Positions 2,706 to 58,215 of a stretch of DNA of 64,000 nt are shown piece by piece. The notes below the pieces were generated by a model. That model was not told where the DNA came from. It saw only the letters and a list, made by a program, of their open reading frames with translations, and did no database searches. The position numbers and the translations under genes are program-made. Every line of letters begins with the position of its first letter. The first letter of the stretch is position 1. This DNA comes from an uncultured virus (IMG/VR IMGVR_UViG_3300035181_002953) (taxonomy: Duplodnaviria; Heunggongvirae; Uroviricota; Caudoviricetes), in the IMG/VR virus record IMGVR_UViG_3300035181_002953; one strand, given 5' to 3'.

Positions 2706-3623
2706 TCACTTCACACACCGGCTGACCGTGGTCTTCTGCGCGCCGCTGACCACCTTCCACAGCGGAACCGACCAGACGACGCGGACGCCCATGTCGAGAT
2801 CGTTCGTGTAGAAGACGTAGTCGAAAGACACGTCCGGGTCCTGGAAGGCACCCTCGCGGTTCGACGACAAGCCCTGCCACTGTGCCACGGTCGGAGGCTT
2901 CCAGCCGAAGCCGAAGTGCTGCGTGCAACCGAGTGGCACGGCCTGGAAGTCGACGAAGTAGTCGCGCTCCCACGTGATGCCCGTCTTCAGGTCGTGCGCG
3001 AACGTGTCGTCGCACCAGAAGTCGGTTGCCAGCGGGCACGCGCTCGGCGCCCCACCCGCACCGCCCGCGCCTGCGACCCCGGAGCCGCCGCTGCCGGCCG
3101 CCCCGCCCTCGCCAGCACCCGAGCCACCGCTGCCCGCGGAGGCGCCCGCCGCGCCCGCCTGGGAGCCGCCCGCGCCCGTGGAGGAACCAGCCGCGCCGCC
3201 GGCCATCGTCGAGCCAGCCGCGCTGCCACCGGAGCCCGAGCCGGCGCCGCCGGCCGTAGAGCCCGCCGCCCCTGCAGCCTGCGTCGACCCCGCCGCGCCG
3301 CCTTTGCCAGCCGTCGTGGCGCCAGCTGCGCCCGCCGAGGAACCACCGGCCGTCGAGCCACCAGAACCGCCGCCAGCGCCCGCCTTGGAGCCGCCTGCGC
3401 CAGCGGCGAGTGACCCCGCCGCCCCCGCCGCCTGCTCGGCGCCAGCAGCACCCGCCGCGCCTGCCCCGGGGTGCCCCGCGGTCGCAGGGTGCCCAGCGCC
3501 GCCCGCCGTGCCGCCGGAAGAGCCCGCCGCACCAGCATGAGCCGAAGCGTCGAACGTGAACTCGTCACCACCGCTGCAGGCGGTGAGCAGGACCAGGATC
3601 AGGGCGAAGACGATGTTGTTCAC
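2706..3623 (-). CDS. lipoprotein with Gly/Ala/Ser-rich linker and C-terminal DUF1566 (Lcl)-like domain
   Basis: Signal peptide with lipobox LLTAC; long AGAAG/GGSG low-complexity tract; C-terminal HDLKTGITWER...GWKPPTVAQW...RCVK fits the DUF1566 pattern; SD AGGAG upstream. Confidence 0.75.
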   Translation of the reverse strand: MNNIVFALILVLLTACSGGDEFTFDASAHAGAAGSSGGTAGGAGHPATAGHPGAGAAGAAGAEQAAGAAGSLAAGAGGSKAGAGGGSGGSTAGGSSAGAAGATTAGKGGAAGSTQAAGAAGSTAGGAGSGSGGSAAGSTMAGGAAGSSTGAGGSQAGAAGASAGSGGSGAGEGGAAGSGGSGVAGAGGAGGAPSACPLATDFWCDDTFAHDLKTGITWERDYFVDFQAVPLGCTQHFGFGWKPPTVAQWQGLSSNREGAFQDPDVSFDYVFYTNDLDMGVRVVWSVPLWKVVSGAQKTTVSRCVK

Positions 3624-4240
3624 GGGGATTCTCCTTTTGCGACGTCGGTGGGATGAGGACTACACCCCTTGGACGGAGCCGACCGCTTCATCTCAGCGTT
3701 GATCCTGGATTCCACCTCCAGCAGAACCAGGCGGTACGCATCCACCCGCACCAGCGCGTCATGACGCGACGCGGCGTCCGGGTGAATGACAGCGGACATG
3801 GCGTTGAGAGCGATGCGACCCCTCACCGCGTCCGCCAGCTCCACCAGGACGCCCACGGTCGAGTCCTCGTCGAACAGGGGCGCCGCCGGTGGCACAGCCA
3901 CGACGCGGCCGTGCGGATGATGACGCGGGTCCGTCCAAAGGCAGCGGGCGCCCCCCGCGGCGGTGTCGCCCCCGTCGCCGAAGGAGCCCGCCAGGCGCGT
4001 CACGGTATCTGCGTGGGCGCGGAACCGAGCCTCGCGCGCCCCGGGAGCGGTCGTGCCATCAGGCAGTTCGAGCGTCTCGCCCTCGACGGGCGCGCCATGC
4101 TCGGCGCGAAACGCCTCTGCCGTCGGTGCGAGAGCGAGGTTCCGGTTCTGGTGCGTCAACAGCAACCCCCGCAGCAGCCCCTCGTCTGCTTCGGCGCCGG
4201 CCACCTGCCATCCGCATTTGCACGCGATGTTGAGAATCAT
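3620..4240 (-). CDS. hypothetical protein
   Basis: Operon-coupled ORF starting MILNIACKCGW; SD GGAGAAGG. Confidence 0.55.
   Translation of the reverse strand: MILNIACKCGWQVAGAEADEGLLRGLLLTHQNRNLALAPTAEAFRAEHGAPVEGETLELPDGTTAPGAREARFRAHADTVTRLAGSFGDGGDTAAGGARCLWTDPRHHPHGRVVAVPPAAPLFDEDSTVGVLVELADAVRGRIALNAMSAVIHPDAASRHDALVRVDAYRLVLLEVESRINAEMKRSAPSKGCSPHPTDVAKGESP
3672..3697 (-). promoter_or_regulatory. GCTGAG-N16-CGTC motif (putative phage promoter)
   Basis: Exact motif on the minus strand, 49 nt upstream of the lipoprotein start. Confidence 0.6.
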
Positions 4241-9466: not shown

Positions 9467-9509
9467 TGCCCTTCGAACCGCAATCGCTCACCACCGAGGC
9501 CCGACCACG

Positions 9510-10732: not shown

Positions 10733-13700
10733 CCGACATGAAGAAGCGCAAGGGGAACGACCTGCTCAGCAAGGCGAGCCGGGCGCCGCTGCTCGAGGCC
10801 ATCGGCATCTGGGAGATCCGCGGCATCGAAGCCGACGGGCTCATCCGCGGCTTCGCCGTCAACAGCCGCACGGGCTCCGCCATGGCGCTCCCGCCGGCCC
10901 CCTCACGCGAGGCCTTCGTCGCCGGCGCACGGCAGCGGGTGGCGGCGTGACGGCCGCGGGAGCGCCGCGCGCCAAGGCGCCCGGCTTCAAGATGCCGATG
11001 ACGAACGTGGCGTGCCCGCGGTGCCTGCCCCTCGCGCTCGCTCACAAGATCCAACTCGAAAGCGTGCAGCGGCTCCCCGAGGGCGCGTGGGCGCCGCGCT
11101 CGAAGGATCCCGAGTCGAAGCCGTGCTGCATCGACTGCAGCGCCGCCGACCTGCTCGTGCGGATGCAGACCTACCAGCGCGGCGCGAAGAAGGGCGAGCC
11201 CTGGGACGACGACGTGCGCACTGGCCGGGAGTCGATGCTGACGTTCGAGATGGCGCGCATCGCCGTGAGCAACGACCGGTGCGAGCAGTACCGCCTCCCC
11301 GGCGTCCGCATGGGCCTCGTGCTCGCGGGCATCACGAAGCCGAGCGAGCGCGGCGACCTCGAAGAGCAGTACGCGTGGCTCGAGACGCAACCCTGGTACG
11401 CGGAGCGCACCCCGGCATCGACGTCGTGACCACGTAACGGAGAGGACTCGAATGGCGACCAAGAAGCTCGCGCAGCTCGCGCCGACGGCGAAGTACATCG
11501 TCGAGGGACAGCGTGCTTTTTCCTCAAGGGCGGCCTCCAGCTGTCGTCGGGGCGCACGGTGCAGATCGAGGTGTGGCTCGCCGCGCCGGACGACCTCACG
11601 CCGAAAGAGCAGCGGGAGCTCGAGTCGTTCCCGGTCGCCTTTCACGACCTCACGCCGAAGCAGCCGAAGAATCAGGCGAAGGTGGCAACGAAACATCGAA
11701 AGGAAGCCAAAAAATGAGCACGGATCCGCCTCGCGGCCTGATCGAGCCTACGTACTACCCGCCGGCGCCGGCACCGCTGCTCACGCCCGAGCAATCGGTG
11801 CGCGCGATCAACATCCTGCAATCCGCGCACATCAACGGCTCGTGCTCGTTCATGAGCGATCGGGACGCCTACGCCCGCCGGAAGGGGGAGCGCTTCGGGG
11901 ACCGTGGGTGCGCCGAGCAGAACAGCCTCGACTTCGACTGCATGTACTGCGCGGCCGAGAAGCTGCTCACCGAGATCGGGAAGCTGCCCCGGCGCCGGTG
12001 ACTCGCTGAGGTCGCGAACAGGAACACGTCAGGGGATGGAAATCGAGGGAACGATGGGACGAGACGAACAGCGGGGGACGGCAACGTGACCGACCGATAC
12101 AAGGGCTTCATCGTCACGCTGAGCGACGACCTTCGCGACGACGACGCAGCGGCCACCATCGCCGCGATCAAGCAGATCAAGGGCGTCATCGCCGTCAAGC
12201 CCGTCCTCAACGAGGGCATCGGCGACGAGATGGCTCAGGACCGCGTGCGCCACGAGCTATGGGCGAAGGTCCACAAGGCCTTCTTTCCGACGGGTAAATC
12301 ATGAACCGCCGCGTCCTCGCAGCCCTCGTCACGCTCGCCGACCTGCACCGGGCCGAAGAAGACCCGACCGCGCAGCTCGAGATCAGCACGCTCTACGGCC
12401 GCCATGGCGTCGCCCTGCGCGCGCTCGAGGATGCCGACGAAGAGCTCTACCAGTCGCTCGCCAAGCAGCTCTGTGAGAAGCGCGAGACGATCGAAGACGA
12501 CCCGGTCGGCGCCGAGCTGCTCCGCCGCGCGTGCTCGGGAACGCTCCCCTACCAGGTCACCGGCGCGGAAGCCTGCGAGCGGTACGCACACCTGCTCGCG
12601 CCGCGCGTGGCGAAAGGACAGCCGTGAAGAAGAAGCCCTCGGCGAGCCCGAAAAAGACCATGTTCGGCGCCACGAAGAAGCGGCGGGAGCTCGGCGCGCG
12701 CGCCGAGCGCCTCGAGCGCGATGTGAATAGGTGGCGGCAGCGGTTCGAGGACTGCCGCTTGGAAACGTGGAATCAGGCCGCCGAGATGGAGCGTCTCCGC
12801 GGTCGCCTGGTGCAGAAGGAAACGGAGCTCGTCGCCGAGCGCGGGCGCACCTGGTCGCTGGTCGAGAAGGCCCACGCGCTGCAGGGCGCGGTGGATCGCC
12901 AGGACCGCGATCTCTCCCAAGGGAACGAGGTCCTCCGCCGCTACATCCTCGACGAGGCAGCGCGGCAAGAGTCCGTGAATGCCACCGGCGCCACGTTCGT
13001 CGGCCAGATCGCTTCCTACGTCGACCAGGCACGCGCGCTGCTCGAGCGGTGGTGCCGGTTACGCCCGACGTCGAGCTCGCCAAGGTCGCGCCCTTTCCCG
13101 CGTCTTCGAGCTACCGCTCCCGGAGCAGCTGAAGCGGAAGGCGGCGGGCTGGTCGTGGGCGCCGGGCCTGTCGCCCGGGCTCGTGGTGCTCAGCGCGTTC
13201 GGCCTGGTCCGGAAGCCATGAACCCGCGTCGCCGCCGTCGGCTGCGCTTCCAGCGTGCGCATAACCGCCCGTGCTTCTGGTGCGACATGACCGGGACCCG
13301 GCGCGCGAGGCCCTGGTACAACGCGCCGCTTTGCGCCTTTCGCTGCGCGACCTGCAACGGCACCGGCGCCTGCGGGGAGAGCAACTGGATGCCGGGCCAC
13401 TTCATGCTGTCCCAGCAAAACCAGCTGGCACGGTCATTTTTCAAGGCGTACCCGAACGCGCGATCGTTCCGCGCGCCGGTCATCCCGAGGAGGCAAGCAT
13501 GGGCAGTGGCAGCATCATCGTCAGAGGCGTGAAGGCGGTCGTGGACGCGGAGCGGAAGAAGGAGTTCGCGCTCGGTGAGATGGTCATCGAGGACGTCGTC
13601 GACGGCGACTGGCGCGCGGCGACGCTGATGGCCGAGCACCTGTCGTTCGCAAAGGAGCGGCCCGAGGTCCAGGCCGCCTATGGCCCCCTCTGGGCTCGGT

Positions 13701-14456
13701 TCCGGGAGATCGTCGAGACGGAGGCGCTGCTTGCGCGGAAGCGCGAAGCGGACCCCATGGGCTGCCAGAAGAAGGACTGAGGAGACCAACCATGAACAGG
13801 TACCTGGTGACGCTCGACCACGGGGTGAACCGGTTGCCGAGGGTCGGGGAGGTGGTCGAGCTGAAACCGACCGACGAGTGACGCACGCAGCAACGGGGGT
13901 AGCAACGGGGAACAGGTAGCGGAAAGGGAACGAGGAACAAACGATGACGACGAAGGCGAAGGCGACGATTCCGGGGATGTGGTCCGACATGTTTGCGCAG
14001 CTCCCCTCGACGAGCGAGGCAGCGCGCGTCGCCGGTGGGCTCATTGCCGGACGGTCTGCGAAGCGGGTGCAGGAGCCGGCGACCTGGACGACGACGCGCG
14101 AGCGGACCGACCACCTGGGGTGCGTGCTCGAGATCTGGGAGCGCGCGAACAAGACGGCGACGAGCTGGCACTGGAAGACGAGGGGTGTGATCACGATCTC
14201 GGGCACCGCGGAGAGCGAGGAACGCGCCCGGTGGTTTGCCTACACGGCGGCGCGCATCATCGACGCGATGTCGAACCAAGCGCCGACCACCACCGACGGC
14301 GGCTCCAAGCGCTCGCGCATCGTGACGACGATCGGCGGCGACACGTTTCACAGTCACGGTCGCGGTCGCGGAGGTGCCAAACAGCGTCGCATGACCCAGA
14401 CGGAGCTCGACCTGACCCCGAAGCGCCCCGCGCGCACCGGTCGAGCCACCACCTAG
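10729..14456 (+). other. run of small hypothetical phage genes (about 10738-10950, 10947-11429, 11452-11717 frameshifted, 11714-12001, 12086-12304, 12301-12627, 12624-13221, 13218-13532, 13499-13780, 13944-14456)
   Basis: Co-oriented ORFs with overlapping start/stop codons and several Cys-pair motifs; no family recognised. Confidence 0.55.
12005..12030 (+). promoter_or_regulatory. GCTGAG-N16-CGTC motif
   Basis: Exact intergenic copy. Confidence 0.65.
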
Positions 14457-14520
14457 AAGAGGAGGAGGACACCCCGCACACGCCATAAGCAACGTATGTG
14501 CCAAGCATCCAAACAATCGC

Positions 14521-14548
14521 CTGTCCGATAATGCCGATTATCGGACAG
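14521..14548. other. putative tyrosine-recombinase core site (11-6-11): CTGTCCGATAA-TGCCGA-TTATCGGACAG
   Basis: Perfect 11-bp inverted arms around an asymmetric 6-bp spacer in non-coding DNA; Cre-like recombinase elsewhere in the window. Confidence 0.6.
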
Positions 14549-14571
14549 CGTAATATGGACCGGTCGGTAGG

Positions 14572-14785
14572 GTTACCGGGGGCTCGGCCCCTGGAAGCTG
14601 AGACCGGGGTATCGCGAGTGGCGGTCGCTCGGCCCCTCGAAGCCGAGACAGAATCCGCGCCACCTCACGCCGGCCTTCAAGGCCAGCCTTCACGCCAGCC
14701 TTTGCCAAAGCGCGCTCTTGGCACGCTTATCGCCGAGACCTGCATGTAAACACCAAGCGGGCGCTCGGCCCCTCGAAGCCGAGAC
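14572..14785 (+). CRISPR. degenerate mini-array A (four type V-like repeats ending at 14604, 14649, 14739, 14785)
   Basis: GCTCGGCCCCTGGAAGCTGAGAC, GCTCGGCCCCTCGAAGCCGAGAC, CTTGGCACGCTTATCGCCGAGAC, GCTCGGCCCCTCGAAGCCGAGAC; end-to-end spacing 45, 90 and 46 nt. Confidence 0.7.
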
Positions 14786-14810
14786 TGGGTCGATGGTTCC
14801 TCTGAAAACC

Positions 14811-14836
14811 GCTGAGGACCGGCCGGTAGAGCCGTC
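14811..14836 (+). promoter_or_regulatory. GCTGAG-N16-CGTC motif
   Basis: Exact; ATG 9 nt downstream. Confidence 0.65.
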
Positions 14837-14845
14837 GGAGGGGAC

Positions 14846-15253
14846 ATGGACACCGTGAGCAGCTCGAGCCAGGGGAACGTGAAGTGGACCGCTCGGATGA
14901 TTCGCCGCTCGCGCGGCGCCGTCCGGGGCGTTCTCGCCGAGATGCTCGGTGCCTGGTGCAACGAGCACCGTCAGGCGGACTTCATCGCCCAGCGCGAGAT
15001 CTTCCCCGTCGCGGGCCGAAAGGAGTCCGTGCGCTGGGTGGCGACGTGGGCGTTCTTCGGCCACGGCCCGAGCTGGGGCTGCTGGCCGGGCGATGCCGAG
15101 TATGCGGCGCTTCGGGAGCGGCTCGGCGGTCCTCCGCTCTCGCGGGCCGCGTCGATGGTCGACGAGGCGGCGCGGGAAGAAGGGCTCCGGAAGCGGCGCC
15201 TCGCGCGGACGAAGCGCCGGACCGTCGCGGCGCCTATCACGGTGGGCTGCTGA
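14846..15253 (+). CDS. hypothetical protein flanked by two identical CRISPR-like repeats
   Basis: ORF follows the promoter motif and SD GGAGG; repeats end at 14785 and 15285. Confidence 0.55.
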   Translation: MDTVSSSSQGNVKWTARMIRRSRGAVRGVLAEMLGAWCNEHRQADFIAQREIFPVAGRKESVRWVATWAFFGHGPSWGCWPGDAEYAALRERLGGPPLSRAASMVDEAAREEGLRKRRLARTKRRTVAAPITVGC

Positions 15254-15255
15254 GC

Positions 15256-15285
15256 AGCGGGCGCTCGGCCCCTCGAAGCCGAGAC
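15256..15285 (+). repeat. solo CRISPR-like repeat AGCGGGCGCTCGGCCCCTCGAAGCCGAGAC
   Basis: 30-nt identity with the repeat at 14756-14785. Confidence 0.8.
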
Positions 15286-15315
15286 GTCATCAGAACGATC
15301 GCACGGAGCGGGACC

Positions 15316-15825
15316 ATGGGAACCAAGACCACCTTGAAGGCTGCGCGGGCGAGCGTGTTCGAGCGCGTGATGGCGCTGCTCGCTCCCGCATTCTACCGGG
15401 AGATCGCGGCCGAGTACGGCGCGACCGTGATCGACCTTGGCGTGCTGGGCGAGGACGTCGCGATGCTGCTCGGGAAGAACCAGGGGCTTGCCATTCTTCC
15501 GCTCGGCCGCATCGTGCTCGGCGCACACGATAGCAAGGCAGAGCAGGACGCCACGTTCTTCCACGAGATGGGGCACGTGATCGACGTGCGGAGCGGAAAG
15601 GTCACGGGGCCGGCGTGGAGCGCGGCCGAGCACTATGCCAATGAGCTGTCCGCGTGGCGAACGGGACTTCGTCTCGCCCGGAAGAAGGGCATCACGTTCT
15701 CGAACGCCGCCCTCGCCAACTGCGACAAGCACCTGATGTCGTACGTACGCGGGCCGATGCTCGAGAAGAAGAAGCCCCGATCGGACATCCTGCGACGCGA
15801 GTTCGGGCGGAAGCGAAAGAAGTGA
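15316..15825 (+). CDS. HEXXH metallopeptidase-like (ImmA/IrrE-like) protein
   Basis: TFFHEMGH...ANELSAW. Confidence 0.6.
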   Translation: MGTKTTLKAARASVFERVMALLAPAFYREIAAEYGATVIDLGVLGEDVAMLLGKNQGLAILPLGRIVLGAHDSKAEQDATFFHEMGHVIDVRSGKVTGPAWSAAEHYANELSAWRTGLRLARKKGITFSNAALANCDKHLMSYVRGPMLEKKKPRSDILRREFGRKRKK

Positions 15826-15892
15826 GCGTGTGACTCGCTGAGGTGCTCCTCTGCGCCCCGCCGTCGGCGGAACACCACCAAGGAAAGGCATC

Positions 15893-16501
15893 ATGGCAAA
15901 CGACAACGATCGCTCCATCAACTTCGACAACCTGCTGATCCTCGAGCGCATGGCTGCGGATGCAAAGAACGCCTTCGATCGCCTTCACACGCACGTTCGA
16001 CAGACCGTTGACATGGAGCGCGCAGATCGCATGAAATCGTTGCTCGACGCGGCCGAGGCGGCGCGGGAGAGCGCTCGGGAGATCGAGAGCGGCCCTACCG
16101 TCTCGGCGCGCAGGGAGCCGGGGCGCTCGACCGCGGCGGACTTCTTTCCGCTGCGCAAGCTCACGCCGCGCGAGGCGGAACTCATCGGCAAGCGCGCAGG
16201 CGCAGACATCGATCCGGAGGGCATCCACTATGCTCTGCGCCAGCGCGTCGTAGAATCCGTATTTAAGCACCTCGGCCCCTACCCGTTGCCCTTCGACGAC
16301 CTCACCGAGCTGTCCAAGGCGACGTCGTCGCCGACGACGGACGAGAACCGGTCTGTGCGGCAACGTCTATGCGACGATGGCTATATCTTCGCCGTCGGCG
16401 GGACCACGCCCACGAGCTTCATTCTCAACCCGGTGGCCGTCGACCTGCTCGCGTTGCACGGGATAGGCCCCCTTGCCGCCGGCCGCCGATCGACGCGCTG
16501 A
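15893..16501 (+). CDS. hypothetical protein
   Basis: SD AAGG; preceded by a variant promoter motif at 15837-15865. Confidence 0.6.
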   Translation: MANDNDRSINFDNLLILERMAADAKNAFDRLHTHVRQTVDMERADRMKSLLDAAEAARESAREIESGPTVSARREPGRSTAADFFPLRKLTPREAELIGKRAGADIDPEGIHYALRQRVVESVFKHLGPYPLPFDDLTELSKATSSPTTDENRSVRQRLCDDGYIFAVGGTTPTSFILNPVAVDLLALHGIGPLAAGRRSTR

Positions 16502-16507
16502 TCGTCA

Positions 16508-16758
16508 TGCAGGCCAACCACGTCCCTCGTCGCGAGCGGCTGATCTCGAAGATCCGCAAGCTCGAGCACAGGCTCGAGGCAAGTCGCGAGAAGCCGTACG
16601 CGAACAATCCCTATTGGCGTTGCGTGGAGTGCGGAATCTACGACCCACAGCGCTCGGTCAACGAGGGTCGGCACCATCGCGGCTGTTCGATCGAAGGTCT
16701 CGACCGTCAGATCGTGCACTACCGGCGTCTCCTGTCCGAAGAGGAAGCTAAGTCATGA
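16508..16758 (+). CDS. hypothetical Zn-finger protein
   Basis: CVEC...HHRGC. Confidence 0.5.
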
Positions 16759-18869
16759 CTAGCGACAATGAGCTGACCAGGGTCGACGTCGTCGAGGGCA
16801 CTCGGGCCGATAACATCCACGGTGAAGAGATCGCGATCGGGTACTGGTATCGACGCATTCCCGAGTCGAAGGACGAGGGTACGTCCGACGACGAGGACCA
16901 GCTCGAAGAGCTTCACGTGCTGATGGCCAGCGACGACCAGGAAGACGAAGGCGCCAGCGCTGACGATCAGGATGATGACGACGACTCCGGCGAAGAGAGC
17001 CGACGCGACGACCATCCCGAGCTGCATTTGCATGGCGATGAGCAGCGTGCGGACCCGGACGATGGCTGGATCGGGTGCGTCGTCGAGGTCGGGTCAAACT
17101 ACATCCAGCTCAAGGCCGTCGACGACTCCTCGCTACGTGTCCACCTGGACAACGTCGACCAGCACCTCGTACGCATCCCCGACCCGGGGCGCCTCATCGA
17201 GCGCAAGACGGCGCTTCTGAAGTCGCAGATGGACGGGTACATGCGCGAGGTGGTGGCGCTGACGTCCAGGCTCGGCGTCGCCTCCGCCGGCGCGCTCACG
17301 ACCGGGTCGGAGGTCGCGGCGCTTGCGCTCCGCCCGTCGAGCGAACCCGTCGGCGACTACAAGGCGGCGCTCGAGCTCGCGCACAAGACGACGCTCCCGG
17401 ATCTCTTCTCCAAGATCGAGTCGACCGGCAAGCGGCTCTCGCTGTGGATGAAGGCGCCGATGTTGCCGATGCGCGCGCAGGCGGAGGCGATGAAATCGTC
17501 GCTCAAGAAGATCGAGTCGCGGATCTTCAACGTCGAGCTCTATGCGGGCCTCATCGAGCAGGTCGAGCGCATCGCGGACGGCGAGCCGGCCTCGCTCGAA
17601 GAGCCCATCCGCCTCTTCCAGCGGCGGGCGTACATGGACGAGGAGTGCCTCGCTCGGTACGAGGCCGGCGGAATGGACTTCGCCGGCATTCCCGCGTTCG
17701 ATCGGTGGCTCACGCGCCACGAGAACATCACCCGGCTGCTCCCGTTCCCCCGGTGCGCGCTCGCCTTCCAGGTTCGCCGCAAGGTGAAGGAACGAGAGAG
17801 GCCGAGTGATCTCGGCGGCTTCATCCGCATCCTCGCGGAGGAGAAGGCCGACATGCAGACGTTCCTCTACATGCGCAACGGCGAGCAGGTCTACCGGCTC
17901 GACACGGCGATCGACTTCGGCGAGAAGCTCTTCCCCGACCTCGACCACATCGACAAACTGGGCGGCGGCGCGTTGCTCTGGGCCGAGCATGGCTACATGC
18001 ACGGCACGCGCATCCTCACGGATGCCGAGTACCAGGGCCTTCTCGAGGAAGAGGCGCGCGAGCTGCGCAAGTGGAACGAGCTCCCGAAGAATCGGCGCAT
18101 CTTCCCGCCGCGCAAAGAGTCGACGCGCTTCAAGCGATTCGACAAGGATAACCTCTACTACGACGAAATCGCGCGCCACATCGCGTCCCAGATCGAGGCG
18201 CACAACCGGCTCGTCATCGTCCTCCAGGGCCTTCTCGACCGATCGCCCGTGTTCCACCCGCACCCGCCCTGGTCTCTCTGGTCCGAGAGCGGGATGAGGG
18301 CGCTCGATCTCATCTACGACGACTCGCGCGCGCTCGTTGGCGGTGCCGCCCCCGACTTCGAAGCCTACCGGGCGCGGCTCAACGCCTCGCTCAAGGTCGG
18401 CGACGTCACCGTCGGGCAAGAGCACGCGTGGATGCGCAGCGAGTCGAAGAAAGAGCTCCACCGTCTCCGGAATGGCCGCCACCGGTGGGGTTACGACCAG
18501 GAGCGGTTCCACCCGGAGCTCGTCCGTCCATGGCAGAGCCCTGGCCCTGGCCTCGTCGGGCGCGTCGTCGCCGTGTCGAAGCGGGCGAAGACGTGCAGCT
18601 TTGAATGGGAGCGGAAGCGCGAACGCCAGCAGTACGGGAAGCCGGAGATGATGACCGAGCGCCTGTCTCTCTCGATCGGGAAGATCCTCAACATCTCTGC
18701 CTACACGCCGGGCGACTTTCAGATCTTCTTCTCGGACCCGTGGACGCGCGCCAACTACCTCGAGTGGGCGCCGCTGCTGCTGGTTGCCGAGGAGTACCAC
18801 GCGGGCCAGCGCACCGTCGGCCTCCCCGGCGACGAGCGCGACCCGCTCCGGAAGAAGGACAACCGATGA
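16755..18869 (+). CDS. large hypothetical phage protein (704 aa) with acidic N-terminal insert and coiled coil
   Basis: Long GC3-biased ORF coupled to neighbours; no family recognised. Confidence 0.8.
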   Translation: MTSDNELTRVDVVEGTRADNIHGEEIAIGYWYRRIPESKDEGTSDDEDQLEELHVLMASDDQEDEGASADDQDDDDDSGEESRRDDHPELHLHGDEQRADPDDGWIGCVVEVGSNYIQLKAVDDSSLRVHLDNVDQHLVRIPDPGRLIERKTALLKSQMDGYMREVVALTSRLGVASAGALTTGSEVAALALRPSSEPVGDYKAALELAHKTTLPDLFSKIESTGKRLSLWMKAPMLPMRAQAEAMKSSLKKIESRIFNVELYAGLIEQVERIADGEPASLEEPIRLFQRRAYMDEECLARYEAGGMDFAGIPAFDRWLTRHENITRLLPFPRCALAFQVRRKVKERERPSDLGGFIRILAEEKADMQTFLYMRNGEQVYRLDTAIDFGEKLFPDLDHIDKLGGGALLWAEHGYMHGTRILTDAEYQGLLEEEARELRKWNELPKNRRIFPPRKESTRFKRFDKDNLYYDEIARHIASQIEAHNRLVIVLQGLLDRSPVFHPHPPWSLWSESGMRALDLIYDDSRALVGGAAPDFEAYRARLNASLKVGDVTVGQEHAWMRSESKKELHRLRNGRHRWGYDQERFHPELVRPWQSPGPGLVGRVVAVSKRAKTCSFEWERKRERQQYGKPEMMTERLSLSIGKILNISAYTPGDFQIFFSDPWTRANYLEWAPLLLVAEEYHAGQRTVGLPGDERDPLRKKDNR

Positions 18870-19492
18870 ACCCGCGCTCGATTCGAAAACGCCTCATGTG
18901 CCGACGCGTCGACTCCCTCTGGGGCCCGCGCGCGTGCCTCACGGTGCGAATCCCGCTGTCCGCGCTCCCCGAGCGCCCGCCGGCCATCCCGAAGACGCTG
19001 GGCAAGCAGGTCGACGGCGAGGCGAAGTTCCTGCGAACGGACGACCAGGGGCGTGCGGTCGTGACGACGGTCGACGAGGTCTTCGTCGTCGATGAGCCGG
19101 AGGGCATTGCGTTCCGTGAGGAGGAACACGGCTTCGCCTGGATCGAAATCGTCGAACGCACGTTCGAGGACTATGATGGTCCAAACGAGCAGATTGTCGC
19201 CGAGAAGCGCGGCGACCCCGAGATAGAGGCTTTGGTCTCGGCGCGTGAGGCCTGGTTCGATCGCTACCTGCGATGCTCTGGACAGGGCGTGCCGTTCCTC
19301 GACGCCTTCGTCCGTGCGCGCACCTTCGCCGCGGCCATGTACTCGACGGTCGACGACGATACCGGTTCGATCGTGCTCGACTACCGCGTCCAGTGGTACC
19401 GGCCGAGCTACAAGCGCAGGTTCTGCGCAGACCTCGCCGGCGCTATGGCACAGGCGAGGAAGGCGGGAGTGATCGCGCGCGTGAGTCGCTGA
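18866..19492 (+). CDS. hypothetical protein
   Basis: ATG overlaps upstream stop; ends in the TGA of a promoter motif. Confidence 0.65.
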   Translation: MNPRSIRKRLMCRRVDSLWGPRACLTVRIPLSALPERPPAIPKTLGKQVDGEAKFLRTDDQGRAVVTTVDEVFVVDEPEGIAFREEEHGFAWIEIVERTFEDYDGPNEQIVAEKRGDPEIEALVSAREAWFDRYLRCSGQGVPFLDAFVRARTFAAAMYSTVDDDTGSIVLDYRVQWYRPSYKRRFCADLAGAMAQARKAGVIARVSR

Positions 19493-19513
19493 GGCTCGCC
19501 GCCCCGACCCGTC
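19488..19513 (+). promoter_or_regulatory. GCTGAG-N16-CGTC motif heading the putative cas12m operon
   Basis: Exact; followed 7 nt later by a solo CRISPR-like repeat. Confidence 0.7.
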
Positions 19514-19520
19514 ACACAGG

Positions 19521-19550
19521 ATGTTGCAATCGCTCGGCATCGGCCGAGAC
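19521..19550 (+). repeat. solo CRISPR-like repeat ATGTTGCAATCGCTCGGCATCGGCCGAGAC
   Basis: Same CTCGGC/GCCGAG stem and GAC end; 5' GTTGCAAT is typical of CRISPR repeats. Confidence 0.7.
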
Positions 19551-19568
19551 AGAGAGGACTTGCCAGCC

Positions 19569-20195
19569 ATGGAAGAAGAAACGACGTACGTTGCGGCCGA
19601 GGACCACGTGGTGGGCGAGCGGCTTCTAGAGCTGCGGCGGCGCGTCTACAGCTGTATGCGCGACGAGCGCGCGCCCATGTCGCCGAACGTGGCGCTCGCG
19701 CTGATCGACCGGTGCACCGCCCTGATCAACGCGCTCGACAAGGCCGAGGAGCTGGGCGACCTCGTGTGCGAGGCCGCGCAGCTTGCATGGGCAGCGCAGG
19801 GCGATCAGGTCTCCGCGCAGGCATGGGAGAAGAGAGCCACGGAGATCCTGCAGCGCCTCGGCGAGCCGCTGAACTTGGCCGGAAAGATCCCGCAGAACAC
19901 TGCGCCGTCGATGGGGAAGGAATCGAAGACCATGAAGAAGATCATTGCAGGGGGTGTCATCGATTGCGTGGAGCTGACCCCGGACGGGCGGCTCGCGCAA
20001 GTCGAGATCGACTACTCGCGCTCGAACATCGACGATGGGTTCAGTGTCCGGCACGTGCTGATCGTCACCCCGGAGGCGGCCGATGAGCTGGCGTCGCGCT
20101 TTCGGAAGAAGGTCAAGATCACCATCGAGGAGGACGACTCCATCGATCCATGTGATTTCGTCGGCGACATTGCCGCCGAGGAGAGCGACTCGTGA
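19569..20195 (+). CDS. hypothetical protein co-transcribed with the Cas12-like gene (possibly two genes)
   Basis: SD GAGAGG; stop overlaps the GTG of the Cas12-like gene; possible second start MKKIIAGG near 19932. Confidence 0.6.
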   Translation: MEEETTYVAAEDHVVGERLLELRRRVYSCMRDERAPMSPNVALALIDRCTALINALDKAEELGDLVCEAAQLAWAAQGDQVSAQAWEKRATEILQRLGEPLNLAGKIPQNTAPSMGKESKTMKKIIAGGVIDCVELTPDGRLAQVEIDYSRSNIDDGFSVRHVLIVTPEAADELASRFRKKVKITIEEDDSIDPCDFVGDIAAEESDS

Positions 20196-22045
20196 ACCGC
20201 GTGTTCCGATATGGGCTCCTCTCGCCCGACGCCGAGAAGATCGACGCCATCGAGAGCCAGGCGACGCTACTCCACCGCTACCGCAACATGCTCATCCAGA
20301 TCGAGCGCGCGCGCCGCGCCGCGCTGCGTGAGCTCGAGGGCGGCGGCGGCGGCATTCCTGCCCTCCAGGCGGCTGCCGACGAGGCGAAGCGCTTCGAGGA
20401 CGACGCGGAGAAGGCCGTGAAGGCGGCCCGGAAGAAGACCAGGTCGCGCTCGGAGACCGAGGACGCGCGCGCCGTGCTCCGGGTGCTCCGCATCCGCCGG
20501 AGCAAGGCCGTCGGGGAGCTCAAGCAGGCGATGGCCCTCATCCGGCAGGACCCGGAGATCGCCGCGGCCCGCAAGGCCATCAACGAGCGGTCGGAGATCC
20601 TGCGCAAGGGCGCCCGCGGCGAGTCGGGCTGCTACTGGGGCAGCTACCTGCTCCAGGAAAACGCGATGGAGGCGAGCCAGAAGATGCCCCTCTACGACAA
20701 GACGATGCCGAACGACCCTCGGTTCAAGTCCGCGAGCAAGCGCGCGCAGTTCGGCGTGCTCATCCAGAACGGCATCACGGTGAAAGAGCTCTTCGCCGGC
20801 GCCAGCTCGAAGATTCGCATCGATGCCCCGTGCGAGGAGGCAGCGCATTCCGGGAAGCGACGCGACCGCCGGCACCACGCCGGCAAGATCCACCTGCGCA
20901 TTGCCTCCGACGACAACGCGAAGCCGGTGTGGGTCTCGTGGCCGATCATCATGCACCGGCCGATTCCCGAAGGTTCTCTGATCAAGAGCGCCGTCGTCAC
21001 GCGCTCGACCATCGGTCCGCGCACGCAGTGGTCTCTGGCCCTCAGCGTCGACGTCCCGGACGAGCTCGCGCGCGGCTGCGGCGAGGGCGCGGTGGCCATC
21101 GACATCGGCTGGCGCATCATCGGGAACGATCTGCGCGTCGCCACGTGGCGCGACCAGGAAGGCCACACGGGCGATCTCCGCCTCTCCGAGAAGGTCATCA
21201 AGCAGCTGCGGAAGCCCGAAGAGCTGCGCTCGACCCGGGACCAGAACTTCGACGCCGCCCGCGACAAGCTCGGCGCCTGGATCAAGGCGCAGCTCGAGCT
21301 CGGAGCCATCCCCGCCTGGCTACTCGACCGCGCCAAGAGCATCGCGCAGTGGCGCTCGCAGGACCGTCTCGCAGCCGTCGCGCTCTTCTGGAAGACGAAT
21401 CGCTTCGACGGCGACACGGATGCCTACGAGGCGCTCGAGGGCTGGCGCTACCACGACTGGCACCTGTGGAAGTGGGAGACCTCGCAGCGGATCAAGGCAC
21501 TTCGGCACCGCCGGGAGATCTACCGCATCTTCGCCGCCGACCTGTCGCGCCGGTACAGCACTCTCATCGTCGAGGACTTCGACCTCAGCAAGATGTCGAA
21601 GAAGCAACCGACGGAGGGAGTGGGCGAGAACCAGAATGCCAGGTCGAACCGGTTCCTCGCCGCGACGAGCGAGCTTCGCATCGTCCTGTCCGATGCGTTT
21701 CATGCGCGCGGCGGCGAGATGATCAAGGTCGGAGCGATGGCGACCACCATCGAGTGCCACGTCTGCCACCACGTCGAGACGTTCGACAAGGCTTCGTCCG
21801 TCGACCGGGCGGATCCGTGCCCGAAGTGCGGCGCCCAGTGGGATCAGGACGTCAACGCGGCGATCAACCTGCTCGCCCGCTGGGACGCGATCAAGGATAA
21901 GCCGCGCGCGGAGAAGAAGCCCCGCGAGTCGCGGTGGGCGAAGAAGAAGCGCACGAAGGCCGAGAAGTATGCGGCGGAGCTGCAGAAGCAAGCGGGAGCT
22001 CATCCCTCGGCGCCCGACGAGCACAGCGAACAGCCGTCCCCCTGA
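20192..22045 (+). CDS. cas12m: Cas12m-like (type V-M/V-U1) RNA-guided effector, TnpB superfamily, RuvC triad intact
   Basis: 617 aa. N-terminal VFRYGL..HRYRN and long coiled-coil REC; YWGSY; HRPIPEGSLIKSAVVTR; RuvC-I AIDIGWR (D304); WRSQDRLAAVALFWK; HRREIYRIFAADL; RuvC-II IVEDFDL (E461); Zn finger CHVC/CPKC; RuvC-III WDQDVNAA (D553). Collinear with Cas12m blocks recalled from memory; adjacent matching repeats. Confidence 0.82.
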   Translation: MNRVFRYGLLSPDAEKIDAIESQATLLHRYRNMLIQIERARRAALRELEGGGGGIPALQAAADEAKRFEDDAEKAVKAARKKTRSRSETEDARAVLRVLRIRRSKAVGELKQAMALIRQDPEIAAARKAINERSEILRKGARGESGCYWGSYLLQENAMEASQKMPLYDKTMPNDPRFKSASKRAQFGVLIQNGITVKELFAGASSKIRIDAPCEEAAHSGKRRDRRHHAGKIHLRIASDDNAKPVWVSWPIIMHRPIPEGSLIKSAVVTRSTIGPRTQWSLALSVDVPDELARGCGEGAVAIDIGWRIIGNDLRVATWRDQEGHTGDLRLSEKVIKQLRKPEELRSTRDQNFDAARDKLGAWIKAQLELGAIPAWLLDRAKSIAQWRSQDRLAAVALFWKTNRFDGDTDAYEALEGWRYHDWHLWKWETSQRIKALRHRREIYRIFAADLSRRYSTLIVEDFDLSKMSKKQPTEGVGENQNARSNRFLAATSELRIVLSDAFHARGGEMIKVGAMATTIECHVCHHVETFDKASSVDRADPCPKCGAQWDQDVNAAINLLARWDAIKDKPRAEKKPRESRWAKKKRTKAEKYAAELQKQAGAHPSAPDEHSEQPSP

Positions 22046-22246
22046 TCCGCGCTCGGCCGGCTCTCACCGAGACAAGCAGGACAATCGCTCACACGCGCTC
22101 GGCCGCCCTTCTGCCGAGACACCAAGAGCACGGACCTATCCTCTCACCATACGAGCACCCTATGAACGAACGCCACTCGACCATCATGATGCAGACGCGA
22201 AACGGCCTGGAAGTTCCGTGTCTCGGCCGAGCTTCGGGCCAAGGAC
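22044..22246 (+). CRISPR. degenerate mini-array directly downstream of cas12m (repeats ending at 22073, 22120 and a divergent copy at 22246)
   Basis: GCGCTCGGCCGGCTCTCACCGAGAC; GCGCTCGGCCGCCCTTCTGCCGAGAC; GTTCCGTGTCTCGGCCGAGCTTCGGGCCAAGGAC. Confidence 0.65.
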
Positions 22247-22252
22247 GGCCCC

Positions 22253-22480
22253 GTGTTCGACGTGGAGCATGGGATCCCCATGGCGCGCACGACGTTCCTG
22301 AGATGGGACGTGTTCACCGAGGACTACCGGCACCTCCTCGTCGCCTCGGGCCCGGTACCGGACAAGCCCAGCGCCATCCGCATCGACATCACGCAGACCA
22401 CGATCACGGAGGACATGGATGTCGTGAGAACGGTTCCCGTGACGCACGGGATCATCCGCTTTTTCGTGTATGAGTTCTAG
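22253..22480 (+). CDS. small hypothetical protein embedded between repeats
   Basis: 75-aa ORF; the next repeat begins at its stop codon. Confidence 0.5.
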   Translation: MFDVEHGIPMARTTFLRWDVFTEDYRHLLVASGPVPDKPSAIRIDITQTTITEDMDVVRTVPVTHGIIRFFVYEF

Positions 22481-22675
22481 TTCCGCGCTCGGCCGGCTCC
22501 GCTGCCGAGACCACATCGAACGTGCCCGCTCGGCGGCCTCACGGCCGAGACTCATGGTCAGCGTTCCGACGAGATTCGATTCCTGATCCGCACAACCACC
22601 GCTCGGCGTATCTCTAGAGCCGAGACCTCAGCGCGCTTCACCCGCAATGCCAGCTCGATGGTTTCTCGTCGAGAC
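22480..22675 (+). CRISPR. degenerate mini-array (repeats ending at 22511, 22551, 22626, 22675)
   Basis: GCTCGGC-CGGCTCCGCT-GCCGAGAC; GCTCGGC-GGCCTCACG-GCCGAGAC; GCTCGGC-GTATCTCTAGA-GCCGAGAC; GCTCGAT-GGTTTCTC-GTCGAGAC (compensatory stem). Confidence 0.7.
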
Positions 22676-22694
22676 CTAACCGAAGGATGGACCC

Positions 22695-22961
22695 ATGTCG
22701 CAACGCGAACTGCTCACGATCCTTCGCAAGCTGACGCCGGGGCAGCGAGCCGTGCTCATGGCCGCCGGGCAGATGGACCACCCGGGCGTCGTCCAGGGCG
22801 ACATGGATGCAGCTCGGAAGCTCGCGAAGGCGGGGCTCGTGGCGCTCGATCCCAGCGGGCCTACTGGCGACGGCCGCTGGAAGGTCGACCTCACCGATCT
22901 AGGCCGAGAAGCGGCGGCGCTAGCGACCGAAGCAGTTCGTGTTCTCCCCCGCAAGCGCTGA
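22695..22961 (+). CDS. winged-helix-like small protein
   Basis: LTPGQRAVL...ARKLAKAGLV...WKVDLTDLGREAA. Confidence 0.6.
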   Translation: MSQRELLTILRKLTPGQRAVLMAAGQMDHPGVVQGDMDAARKLAKAGLVALDPSGPTGDGRWKVDLTDLGREAAALATEAVRVLPRKR

Positions 22962-24788
22962 GTTCCGCGGGGCGCGTCCGTCCTGCCCCCATGTCCACCA
23001 CGAAGACGAAAGAGCAGCTCGAGCTCGAGCTGAAAGAAGCGATCCGCCTCATCGGGTGCCTGGTCGAAGACCATTGCTCGTACCTCAGCCTCCGCAACGG
23101 GCGGTGGGTCAACGGCGTCTACAAACACGAGTCGTGCCGGGAGGCAATGACCCGGATGCGGGCGTGCCGCACCCCGGCTGCTACAACTGCGAGGCTCGCG
23201 AGTTCCTCGCCAAGCACCGCTGAGGCTGGCGCGGGCGTCTCGTCCCGAGGGCATGAAGATCATCGCCCGCATCTCCTCCACCTGCCGCTGCTGCAAAGGC
23301 CACATCCGCGCCGGGCAGGTCATCGACTGGGAGCGCGGCATCGGCTCCACCCACGCGCAGTGCCCGCCGGTCCTCGAGACGGTGCCCCTTCTGCCGAAGG
23401 AGATGGCACGCGCCGCCTTTCAGCTGATCGAGGGCATCGCCACCATGGCCGACCGTCGCCGGAGGCCACGATGACGCCGACCGTTCTGGATGCGTTCCGC
23501 TGGTACACGATTCTCGAGATCCTCAAGATCGACCCGAACCTCATCACCGATGCGCGCCGCGTGTGCGGCGGCGAATACGGCCTGAACCTCGGCAACAGCC
23601 TGCGCCTGCATGGCAAGCCCGTTCGCATCGACCTATTCTCCCACTGATTCACTCTCACCCGCCCCGTCAGGACAGCATGACCACCACCGACACCACCGCG
23701 ATCTGGCCGCCCATCACGTACAGCGGCTTCGAAGGCCGCGCCGCCCGCAAGAGCATCGGCGAGAAGGCGGTCGTCATTCTCGACCCCGAGGACCGCTCGT
23801 GCTCGGCCTACACCTTCATCGGGTCCGGCGTACCGGCCAAGGTGTGGCACCACCGGGCCGTGACGATTGCCCTCGTCGCGGAGGCCTCGCTCGAGGCCGT
23901 CGAGTCAGCCCTCCGTGGCGGCGAGAGCACCATCGAGGCCCTCTTTGCCCTCTACGCCGGCAAGGACTGGGACGGCTCGAACCACGTCGGCACGTGGAAC
24001 GACCCCGACGACACCCGCTTCGTGCTGCTCGAAAAGCTCGAGAGCGAGCTGGGCGAGGTGCCGACCTACTGGGACGCGTCGGACTACTTCGCGCCCGTCG
24101 TGGTCGAGATCGCTGGCGACGTCGCCGCGCTGGTCCGTACCGGCGTCCGCCCGGAAGAGGCCGTCGAGCTCATCGCCAAGAAAGAAGTCGACTCGGCCGA
24201 GGACGTCATCCTCGAACTGGGCGACGTCGAAGACACCATCCGCGAGCTGTACATCCACGCGGTCGAGAAGGTCATCCTGGCCGCCGACATCTCGACCGTC
24301 GAGATCACGAAGCGCGACCTCGACTCGATCCTGGTGTGGATCGACGGCCAGCCGGCCCTCGCCGAGGTCGCCATCGCGGCGCTGTGCCTCGACCAGGACG
24401 CCACGAACGACGGTGCCGCCGCCTACTTCGAGTACGACAGCGAGACCGACGCGTCGGACTGTCCGGCGAGCGCTCAGGCGCCGGCGTGAGGGGCTGCCTC
24501 GACTGCGGGGGCACCGACGAGGCCCCGCCCCGGCACACAACGGACTGCCCCCAGCTCGAGCGCGTAGCCGAGGGGCCGCTCGGGCGCGGGTGCCGCTTCT
24601 GCGGCGCCACGGGCCTCGCCACCGGGCCGGCATTCGACCCCGATGGCAGCGAGGCCTGCGGGTTCTGCGGCGCCGTCCCGGGGCAGGCCTATGCGACCCG
24701 CCCCAGGTTCAACCGCGGCGCGGCAGCGATTCCAGGCTTCCGAGTGAAGCCGCGCGCGGGCCGCTGAGCTTCCACGAGAGGCGCCGTC
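22957..24788 (+). promoter_or_regulatory. cluster of four promoter motifs (22957-22982, 23219-23244, 23643-23668 CTGAT variant, 24763-24788), each exactly 8 nt before an ATG
   Basis: ATGs at 22991, 23253, 23677 and 24797. Confidence 0.7.
23677..24489 (+). CDS. acidic hypothetical phage protein
   Basis: Follows promoter motif; WDGSNHVGTW motif; GC3-biased. Confidence 0.7.
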   Translation: MTTTDTTAIWPPITYSGFEGRAARKSIGEKAVVILDPEDRSCSAYTFIGSGVPAKVWHHRAVTIALVAEASLEAVESALRGGESTIEALFALYAGKDWDGSNHVGTWNDPDDTRFVLLEKLESELGEVPTYWDASDYFAPVVVEIAGDVAALVRTGVRPEEAVELIAKKEVDSAEDVILELGDVEDTIRELYIHAVEKVILAADISTVEITKRDLDSILVWIDGQPALAEVAIAALCLDQDATNDGAAAYFEYDSETDASDCPASAQAPA

Positions 24789-24796
24789 CTACCACC

Positions 24797-25066
24797 ATGG
24801 CCACCTACACCGTCTACTACGCCCGCGGATTCGCCGATCGCAACCCTCCCGCGACGCTGAAGCTCGCCAACTATGCGAAGATCACCGCCGTCGAGGCTAC
24901 GGGGCTCGAGGACGTCTTCCGCCAGATGAACGTCGTGGATGGCACCGAGATGCCCGTCCGCATCCACTGCCGCTCGATGAGCGTCGGTGACGTGGTCGTC
25001 GACGAGGCCGGCGCCGCGCACTTCGTCTGCTCGGCCGGCTGGCAAATCGTCGCGCTGGAGTCGTGA
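24797..25066 (+). CDS. YodL-like domain protein
   Basis: LEDVFRQMN...RSMSVGDVVV...HFVCSAGW. Confidence 0.65.
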   Translation: MATYTVYYARGFADRNPPATLKLANYAKITAVEATGLEDVFRQMNVVDGTEMPVRIHCRSMSVGDVVVDEAGAAHFVCSAGWQIVALES

Positions 25067-45624: not shown

Positions 45625-45633
45625 GTCCAGTCG

Positions 45634-45719
45634 TGCTCGAGAGTGGGTTCGAACCACCACGTCCCTTGCGGGACACTAGTTCCTGAAACTAGCGCGTCTG
45701 CCAACTCCGCCACTCGAGC
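45634..45719 (-). tRNA. tRNA-Leu(CAG)
   Basis: Cloverleaf with GCTCGAG acceptor, CTAGT-TTCAGGA-ACTAG anticodon arm, long variable arm, GTTCGAA; no encoded CCA. Confidence 0.92.
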
Positions 45720-45732
45720 TTGCTACTCTGCG

Positions 45733-45814
45733 TGCGATCGGAGGGGGTCGAACCCTCACACCTTTCGGCCCGCGGCCCTCAACCGCGGCTGTCTGCCAGT
45801 TCCAGCACGATCGC
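45733..45814 (-). tRNA. tRNA-Leu(GAG)
   Basis: GCGATCG acceptor; CGCGG-TTGAGGG-CCGCG; GTTCGAC. Confidence 0.9.
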
Positions 45815-45837
45815 GAACAAGGCTCCGAAGAGCCCCG

Positions 45838-45920
45838 TGTGTGCGGTTGGATTCGAACCAACGTCGGCATACGCCACCGGAGTTACAGGCCGGCCCCTTG
45901 AACCACTCGGGCACGCACAC
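45838..45920 (-). tRNA. tRNA-Tyr(GTA)
   Basis: GTGTGCG acceptor; CTGTAAC loop; long variable arm; GTTCGAA. Confidence 0.88.
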
Positions 45921-45956
45921 GAAACGACCACCGGCGAGACCAGCTCGCCAACTTCG

Positions 45957-46044
45957 TGCTCGGGCCCGGACTTGAACCGGGACGACCTTTGGGGGCCACC
46001 GGATTTTGAATCCGGCTCGTCTACCTAACTTCCGACACCCGAGC
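45957..46044 (-). tRNA. tRNA-Leu(CAA)
   Basis: GCTCGGG acceptor; CCGGA-TTCAAAA-TCCGG; GTTCAAG. Confidence 0.9.
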
Positions 46045-57397: not shown

Positions 57398-58215
57398 TCA
57401 GGGAAGGTGTACCTCAGAAAAAGCCGGAGCTCGGGCGGAATCGAAACAGGCTGGGCCCAGAACCGCACCACCTTCACCGGCAGCATCGCCTTCTCGCGCG
57501 CCCTCTCCGCAGCCGCCGCGGCTTCCGCGTCGCGCGTTGCCTTTCTCCTTTTTTCTTCCGCCGCCCACCGCTCGTTGTCCGCCCTGCGCGCCGCCGCCTG
57601 TCGAGTTCGCTCTCGAGCCATGGTTTCGCTGCGCTCATGGTCTGCATCCGGCAGCGACGTGAACGTCGGATCGATGAAAGGCCGGAGGAGCCGTGCGCGG
57701 TTCCATTCGCGCAACTTTCGAAGAGCTCCCTCCTCCATCTGTCGAGCGCGCTCACGTCCGACCTCGAAGTAGTAGCCGACCTCTTGGAGCGTCGCGATTC
57801 CGTCGGGATGCTTGTGCGCCTCGGCACGGAGACAGTCGCGGCAAATGAACTCGAGGCACTCGATGCAGCCGAGCCCAGATGAATGCCGGGTCTCGCAATG
57901 CACGCACGCCCACTCCCAGTCGCCCGTCAGGTCCGCAATGGGGTAGAGGAACGTGATCAGCTGTTGCTTCACATTCATCTGCGGACGCGTGCCGGGGCGT
58001 CGATCCAACAGATCGCCAACATGGGCCATTTGACAGTCCTCCGGGTTGATCGACTCCGGCGGAAGCTCCCCGAACTCGCGCTCGAGATCGGCGAGGACCT
58101 GCTTGCCAAGCAGCAGCGACGCGCTGAGGGACCACAGCGTCCCCGTCTGCGCGTAGAAGTATTTCCACCACCCGATCTCGCGGTTCATCGGAAGCCGGTC
58201 CTCGTCGTCGAACAT
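57394..58215 (-). CDS. Zn-finger plus sigma70 region-4 HTH protein
   Basis: CVHC..CIEC..CRDC then TLQEVGYYFEVGRERARQMEEGALRKLR (sigma 4.2 consensus); no region 2. Confidence 0.7.
   Translation of the reverse strand: MFDDEDRLPMNREIGWWKYFYAQTGTLWSLSASLLLGKQVLADLEREFGELPPESINPEDCQMAHVGDLLDRRPGTRPQMNVKQQLITFLYPIADLTGDWEWACVHCETRHSSGLGCIECLEFICRDCLRAEAHKHPDGIATLQEVGYYFEVGRERARQMEEGALRKLREWNRARLLRPFIDPTFTSLPDADHERSETMARERTRQAAARRADNERWAAEEKRRKATRDAEAAAAAERAREKAMLPVKVVRFWAQPVSIPPELRLFLRYTFPE

Follow-up and report, generated by a model that had tools for sequence, protein, structure and literature searches.

A solo Cas12m-type repeat at the inferred transcription start of a phage cas operon

The leader of a phage-borne cas12m operon carries a solo Cas12m-type repeat, followed by an SD-like stretch in the position of a guide and by the start codon of ORF208, the gene leading into cas12m. 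The solo element is real and non-random. Our preferred reading, to which we give a probability of roughly 0.4, is that it is a crRNA-sized mobile unit lodged at +1 of the promoter, with RNA-level feedback on the operon as a by-product or later use. The DNA analyzed, hereafter the window, is a 64,000-nt stretch of an uncultured virus (IMG/VR IMGVR_UViG_3300035181_002953). It looks phage-like, with small, densely packed genes, an SLT domain, a GroES homologue and PHROG matches to virion proteins and a phosphatase. No match to Cas1, Cas2 or Cas4 was found among 102 window proteins; the effector protein is on record on a 77.8-kb contig, which is longer than the window. Features are located in Table 1.

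Table 1. Positions of the repeats, promoter motif and genes discussed in the text
Feature	Position	Strand	Remarks
Four degenerate repeats	14583-14785	+	End-to-end spacing 45, 90, 46 nt
Promoter motif and 135-aa gene	14811-15253	+	Flanked by repeats 14785 and 15264 in the manner of a giant spacer
Repeat	15264-15285	+	10 nt past a stop codon, 30 nt before ATG 15316
Promoter-like motif GCTGAG-N16-CGTC	19488-19513	+	13 copies in the window
Solo Cas12m-type repeat, 30 nt	19521-19550	+	At the inferred +1
48-nt unit (30-nt repeat + 18 nt)	19521-19568	+	Repeat-plus-guide size, between two in-frame ATGs
18-nt segment in guide position	19551-19568	+	SD-like purine stretch 19551-19558
ORF208, 208 aa, function unassigned	19569-20195	+	Overlaps cas12m start by 4 nt
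cas12m, 617 aa, GTG start	20192-22045	+	RuvC D304/E461/D553
Two repeats	22052-22120	+	Directly behind cas12m stop, spacing 47 nt
Antisense repeat	22220-22243	-	GAG-AC family end on minus strand only
66-aa gene	22280-22480	+	Between repeat groups
Four repeats	22488-22675	+	Spacing 40, 75, 49 nt; last one 19 nt before ATG 22695
Four tRNA genes (three Leu, one Tyr)	45633-46044	-	
Two repeats 48 nt apart	59927-59997	-	In a 175-codon open frame, 38 kb from cas12m

The cas operon and its leader

The effector is homologous over its length to characterized Cas12m proteins (E = 1.5e-78 to the solved Cas12m 23vw and 5e-19 to Cas12m2; 2e-71 for the family profile against Cas12m2), and its H255-R256 align with the His-Arg pair through which Cas12m2 touches the 3′-terminal part of the crRNA handle. 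Self-processing of pre-crRNA and DNA binding without cleavage have been shown for Cas12m homologues, and phage-borne Cas12m has already been described. Scoring of 8000 candidates gave 73 further relatives, with identities up to 46%, and a search with the exact protein returned no locus; close relatives of this phage did not turn up in any of the searches. The gene starting at ATG 19569, described as coupled to cas12m, overlaps the cas12m GTG (20192) by 4 nt; cas12m has in addition its own SD (20178-20183), which was missed in the first reading. ORF208 received no Pfam, PHROG or Atlas assignment and found no relative in viral contigs. Among other Cas12m relatives, protein P0013 (954 aa) has an extra Pfam domain, PF16003, and is a possible fusion, and the one in Virus Rctr197k (L357; KX853510 112351-114219) is annotated as similar to a transposase and is followed by a regular array, with no scattering of repeats. 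Upstream of the operon, positions 16755-18869 encode a 704-aa protein that belongs to no known family. Eight viral contigs contain relatives of it (44-50% identity), and neither cas12m nor the promoter motif was seen near these as far as examined; a weaker match lies near another cas12m (L077).

The promoter-like motif upstream of the solo repeat is highly recurrent, with 13 copies between 3672 and 31934 compared with 0.51 in shuffled sequence. An ATG stands 7-9 nt past CGTC in 6 of these 13 copies but at only 63 of 1439 CGTC sites; the proportion is 5 of 12 when the cas-operon copy is left out, and four copies have their ATG exactly 8 nt downstream. This geometry suggests that the motif gives rise to leaderless mRNAs and that transcription of the cas operon begins at about 19521-19522, the position that we infer for +1. 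In Bacillus, ECF-type -10 elements with the sequence CGTC are known, and the window motif might be regarded as one by analogy only. It is not enriched in two Myxococcota genomes (3 matches vs 14 control matches, and 17 vs 51) and thus looks phage-specific. A 264-aa protein encoded at 57394-58188 on the minus strand has a marginal Sigma70_r4 match (E = 1.5e-5; 24.8 bits, cut-off 24.1), with region 2 not detected, and is a candidate reader of the motif. Between 13000 and 25000, we found neither a sigma70 promoter nor a terminator-like site at any repeat; a 12-bp perfect palindrome at 14521-14548, just 5′ of the first repeat group, is terminator-like on the minus strand.

The layout given in the original prediction was borne out: the motif is followed by 7 nt, the repeat, 18 nt and ATG 19569. 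The solo repeat has a 6-bp stem (19533-19538/19543-19548) preceded by a G, a terminal AC and a 5′ tail that fits the family consensus. Its loop is 4 nt, compared with 8-11 nt in the other 14 window copies, a difference missed in the first reading; the shortest array loops among relatives are 5-6 nt (L073). In the Cas12m2 structure, the loop begins with three bases that pair with three bases 5′ of the stem. The solo repeat could form two of these three pairs (19530-19539 and 19529-19540), and its A-U/U-A set is found in none of the other window copies, while its loop is too small for the full pseudoknot together with the loop contacts of the solved structure. Its score is 6.8 in a family model for which 311 array repeats from 58 loci served as training set, and several background sites reach 8-16. 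The short loop and a score inside the background range make binding of this repeat by Cas12m uncertain.

Folding of the leader RNA places the SD-like stretch unpaired just 3′ of the hairpin, which does form, although shuffling the leader sequence does not lower its stability (z = -0.44). A further ATG, at 19521, shares the frame of ATG 19569 and was missed in the first reading. The 15 codons between the two have a codon score of 0.30, and each of the 104 called genes scores higher over its own first 15 codons; an N-terminal extension of ORF208 from ATG 19521 is thus unlikely, and the 48-nt unit is probably non-coding. It shares promoter and transcript with ORF208, with no terminator-like site after it, and does not have the form of a separate small-RNA gene with its own promoter; Rfam holds no family for it. 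No empty allele of the 19521-19568 site was found, so the size of the unit and its flanking ATGs are what point to insertion at +1. The 9-nt word CAATCGCTC occurs at 9481, 19527 and 22082, each time in non-coding, leader-like surroundings and in one case following a different copy of the promoter.

Scattered repeats in the window and its relatives

The exact repeat pattern occurs eight times in the window, compared with 0.05 in shuffles, and 15 hairpins are counted when variants are included. As in type V-M repeats, the family has a 6-bp stem, the G, a terminal AC and a 3-bp pseudoknot. Pseudoknot positions are Watson-Crick in 23 of 33 pairs, where permutation gives 12.3 (p = 5e-5; 11 distinct pairings in 15 copies), and this covariation indicates that the family is under selection as RNA. 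The copies do not form a regular array of ~73-nt period beside the effector, being spaced by 45, 90, 46, 47, 40, 75, 49 and 48 nt. The minus-strand pair far from cas12m has family-model scores of 25.8 and 28.3 and was missed in the first reading; two weaker hairpins end at 59545 and 59338, inside the next predicted genes. A search with the repeat pattern gave scattered single matches only, among the matches listed (80 of 120 stretches). Of three further repeats proposed to precede start codons, those ending at 15285 and 22675 do lie 30 and 19 nt before SD-led ATGs. The third, at 22246, does not hold up: its family ending is present on the minus strand only, the plus-strand RNA lacks the fold, and the gene caller starts the gene at ATG 22280 in preference to the GTG at a distance of 6 nt. 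Three of the seven repeat groups in the window precede an SD-led start within 30 nt.

We next consider the related loci, of which 119 were reduced to 102 non-redundant ones, the window included. They hold 420 strict repeats on the cas12m strand and 12 on the opposite strand, against 2-5 in shuffles. Eighty-eight loci have enough upstream DNA for a leader count, and in five of them (L070, L038, L040, L105 and L095) a scored repeat lies within 60 nt of the cas12m start; among other genes, this is so for 8 of 492 on the same strand and 3 of 351 on the opposite strand. The strict rule adds a sixth, L027, leaving 82 of the 88 with no such repeat; by that rule, four loci have a repeat in the cas12m leader where 0.06 are expected by chance. 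Leader repeats are spread over the tree, with four changes, two of them forced by strong branches (FastTree, 86 rows). The closest parallel is L040, in which a sigma70-like promoter is followed by two repeats 8 nt apart and, 28 nt on, by the cas12m ATG, with an SD within those 28 nt. In L012, the gene ending 16 nt ahead of cas12m is itself preceded, at 29 nt, by a repeat, which forms a 48-nt unit (repeat + 17 nt) before the SD of this gene; its close relative L011 is without the unit. An SD falls inside or beside the guide position in L040, L070, L038 and L027. Repeat-to-start distances range from 10 to more than 300 nt, with no clear peak at 17-19. Short-loop leader hairpins in L055, L063 and L046 were not counted, since ~0.6 relaxed hairpins with G are expected by chance.

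Scattering far from cas12m was scanned in 11 viral records out of 31 viral loci and in KX853510; gene calls outside the latter come from a simple in-house gene caller, and G002, the same phage as G001, was counted once. In four of the 12 records, strict repeats are numerous at distances above 5 kb from cas12m (16 in G001, 11 in G003, 58 in G010 and 22 in G012; controls 0-4), and the other eight have 0-3. These four records and the window together hold 75 repeat groups, of which 26 start -8 to 25 nt from a stop codon (~6% at random) and 11 lie within 30 nt before an SD-led start (~4% at random); a "native gap" control was left out because it counted many false gene ends. G001 contains five near-identical units in which a sigma70-like promoter has a repeat at its start and points antisense into gene ends (repeats ending at 1838, 16905, 142152, 156323 and 157768), showing that a repeat behind a promoter does not necessarily mark the leader of an mRNA. 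Further layouts were seen among the relatives: L047 has repeats spread over ~8 kb downstream of cas12m, and G010 has a second cas12m gene, its 72 strict repeats being divided among many separate arrays that occupy both strands.

Turnover of repeats is visible between G003 and G004, which are ~88-93% identical around cas12m. One difference is the presence or absence of a 48-nt unit (repeat + 17 nt) just before an SD; in another, a 105-codon gene between two repeats (G003 81246-80880) is present in one phage and absent from the other. Several segments behind repeats have been replaced, and elsewhere an extra repeat-spacer unit has been added. The 20 nt past repeats, measurable for 13 of the 15, are less conserved than controls that include coding positions (p = 0.015 and 0.037). 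Array periods across the loci are 70-79 nt in 223 of 335 cases, and a second group of 45-49 nt (36 of 335) comes mostly from L108, where the array at 2850-3700 leaves spacers of guide length only.

A feedback model and competing explanations

The functional steps of our preferred reading are all putative. Repeats would move out of the array and lodge between genes as ~48-nt units, a mode seemingly at work in several Cas12m phages, and in the window a 30-nt degenerate repeat with 18 nt would have been placed at +1 of the phage promoter driving ORF208 and cas12m. Cas12m may bind the 5′ hairpin, probably weakly because of the short loop, and the SD-like stretch would then be held in its guide channel. 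PmCas12m is reported to make a mature crRNA of ~33 + 17 nt and to cut in vitro at guide position 17-18. That position in the solo unit is 0-1 nt before the AUG, and if the cut site can be carried over from this one distant homologue, trimming would take the leader off just before the start codon. The outcome would be negative feedback on ORF208, setting in once the effector exceeds the better crRNA handles; feedback on cas12m, which has its own SD, would be indirect, via coupling or mRNA decay only. Under the usual rules for SD-led and leaderless mRNAs, the same cut could also yield a leaderless message, the usual product of this promoter class, which leaves the sign of the effect uncertain. 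Feedback of the effector on the cas operon, as originally predicted, is therefore plausible: the start at ~19521-19522, the unpaired SD, the cut expected 0-1 nt before the AUG, the leader repeats in 6 of 88 loci and the failure to find a DNA target for the 18 nt speak for it, and the short loop, the score of 6.8, the SD of cas12m and the 82 loci with no leader repeat speak against it. A bolder version, in which V-M phages spread repeat-plus-guide units without Cas1-Cas2, a unit at +1 lets Cas12m clip its own mRNA at the AUG and the effector also cuts polycistronic mRNA at gene junctions, seems to us unlikely.

The repeat might instead be a decayed relic or a scar of recombination, lying at the left boundary of an ORF208 + cas12m cassette with repeats on its flanks. 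The cassette would have entered by recombination between repeats, and the loop of the solo copy would since have shrunk so that the effector no longer binds it. The 4-nt loop and low family score would fit such decay, the 105-codon gene gained or lost between two repeats in G003 and G004 offers a precedent for cassette exchange, the leader repeats of L038, L070 and L105 sit directly behind a stop codon, and 82 of 88 loci do without a leader repeat. The stem, preceding G and terminal AC are nevertheless intact, the 5′ tail fits the consensus, two compensated pseudoknot pairs are unique to the solo copy, and it lies exactly at the inferred +1. We consider a relic rather unlikely, if worth keeping in mind. 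We hold it distinctly improbable that the repeats were selected as a purpose-built network of RNA operators covering the RBS of the cas operon and of phage genes. Three of seven window groups and 11 of 75 groups in the five records (~4% at random) do stand within 30 nt before SD-led starts, an SD lies within or next to the guide position in L040, L070, L038 and L027, and DNA targets were not found. Repeats are, however, tied more to upstream stops (26 of 75 groups) than to starts, at 14-17 nt from the stop in 7 of 9 cases in G001, and 0 of 16 groups in G012 precede an SD-led start. The sequence past repeats is less conserved than controls in G003/G004, five promoter-plus-repeat units of G001 run antisense, and cas12m has an SD of its own. 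With repeats coming and going between close relatives as well, the general control of phage genes envisaged at the outset finds no backing here.

A guide role for the solo unit or another of the scattered units, by which a crRNA-like RNA would, in the manner of CreR, bring Cas12m onto the DNA of the cas promoter or of a promoter in the host, appears very improbable. Standalone repeats are known to regulate type I and V-A effectors by this route and Cas12m binds DNA without cutting, but no window segment (0 of 15) matches the cas promoter region (19428-19577) better than shuffles, and none of six leader segments in relatives matches its own upstream region. The segment behind repeat 22626 begins with 7 nt (22627-22633) complementary to the -35 box that the promoter copies of this phage have in common; as one of 15 tests this is not beyond chance, and the match is short, given that one mismatch in 12 seed bases abolishes the activity of a characterized Cas12m. 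Self-targets were likewise absent for 19 window segments (including candidate hairpins dropped later), for 34 G001 segments and, duplicated spacers aside, for 541 segments within their own loci, and searches against the available genomes and loci gave short matches or repeat copies only. The 18-nt segment matches viral contigs exactly at one site, where GGG stands in place of a T-rich PAM, and in 401 genomes of the phylum of G017 it has 11 one-mismatch and no exact matches, against 7 control matches; both were rejected as chance. That no target turned up for it fits an SD role and gives a guide role no help. Finally, the hairpin could titrate a host Cas12m or simply protect the mRNA end. Solitary repeat units have been proposed as effector inhibitors, and the hairpin does fold at the 5′ end. 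An RNA anti-CRISPR would mimic the repeat of a host system absent from the phage, yet here a cognate effector is encoded 640 nt further on by the phage itself, and the leader shows no gain in stability over shuffled sequence. We regard a decoy or stabilizing role as extremely unlikely.

Relation to known systems and significance

The window system resembles type V-M (MmCas12m/Cas12m2, GoCas12m, PmCas12m and the phage MV-1 MvCas12m) in its ~600-aa effector with the His-Arg crRNA contact, in its repeat with a 6-bp stem, 3-bp pseudoknot and terminal AC, and in that no cas1 or cas2 is seen within the window; MvCas12m is likewise phage-borne and has the D-E-D RuvC of the window effector. Unlike V-M, it has 15 divergent hairpins in small groups at 40-49 nt spacing, with genes between them and some copies antisense, and the operon that encodes the effector has a short-looped copy at its head. 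CreR and the mini-arrays of types I and V-A share with it a degenerate standalone repeat upstream of the effector gene and a proposed autoregulation that senses spare effector. Those elements, however, need a spacer that matches the promoter to regulate type I and V-A effectors, CreR acting in trans on promoter DNA via a partly matching spacer, whereas the solo repeat would act in cis on mRNA, has no promoter match that we could find and carries an SD in guide position.

In two further designs, a CRISPR repeat within an mRNA allows feedback through processing. Control of mRNA by Csy4 hairpins reportedly works in this way, and in GENO, an engineered Cas13d circuit, a repeat in the effector's own mRNA gives negative feedback by crRNA processing. 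Both are synthetic and were built for mammalian cells, whereas the window case would be natural, phage-borne and type V. In the PeSL cassettes of T4-like phages, a promoter and stem-loop lie between small genes that are gained and lost by recombination, and comparable gain and loss between neighboring elements is seen in G003 and G004. PeSL hairpins are terminators, whereas those of the window are Cas12m-type handles with a pseudoknot, no U-tract and a cognate effector adjoining, and the PeSL arrangement of a terminator behind a sigma70 promoter was not found at the repeats in 13000-25000.

No published case of cis leader repeats or of genome-wide scattering of Cas12m repeats was found in literature from which subscription papers and preprint supplements, including the MV-1 repeat table, were largely out of reach; a term search of 10.1101/2024.10.29.618823 gave no match. 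Background was drawn from 10.64898/2026.09.14.751636, 10.1101/2023.03.03.530964, PMC10442227, PMC11013384, PMC12607003, PMC5758882, 10.1101/2023.03.10.532045, PMC9809062, 10.64898/2026.03.26.714355, 10.64898/2026.10.26.761838 and PMC2839356.

Known repeat-based autoregulation of effectors works on promoter DNA via a guide, and processing of a leader has been engineered, with no natural case found in the literature searched. Standard array finders would miss layouts of the kind described here, and such loci may therefore be annotated as transposases. The scattered 48-nt units bear on how V-M systems without adaptation genes acquire new guides, and close phage pairs such as G003 and G004 make guide acquisition testable. 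If our preferred reading is true, Cas12m would gain a second job in phages, as an mRNA-processing regulator.
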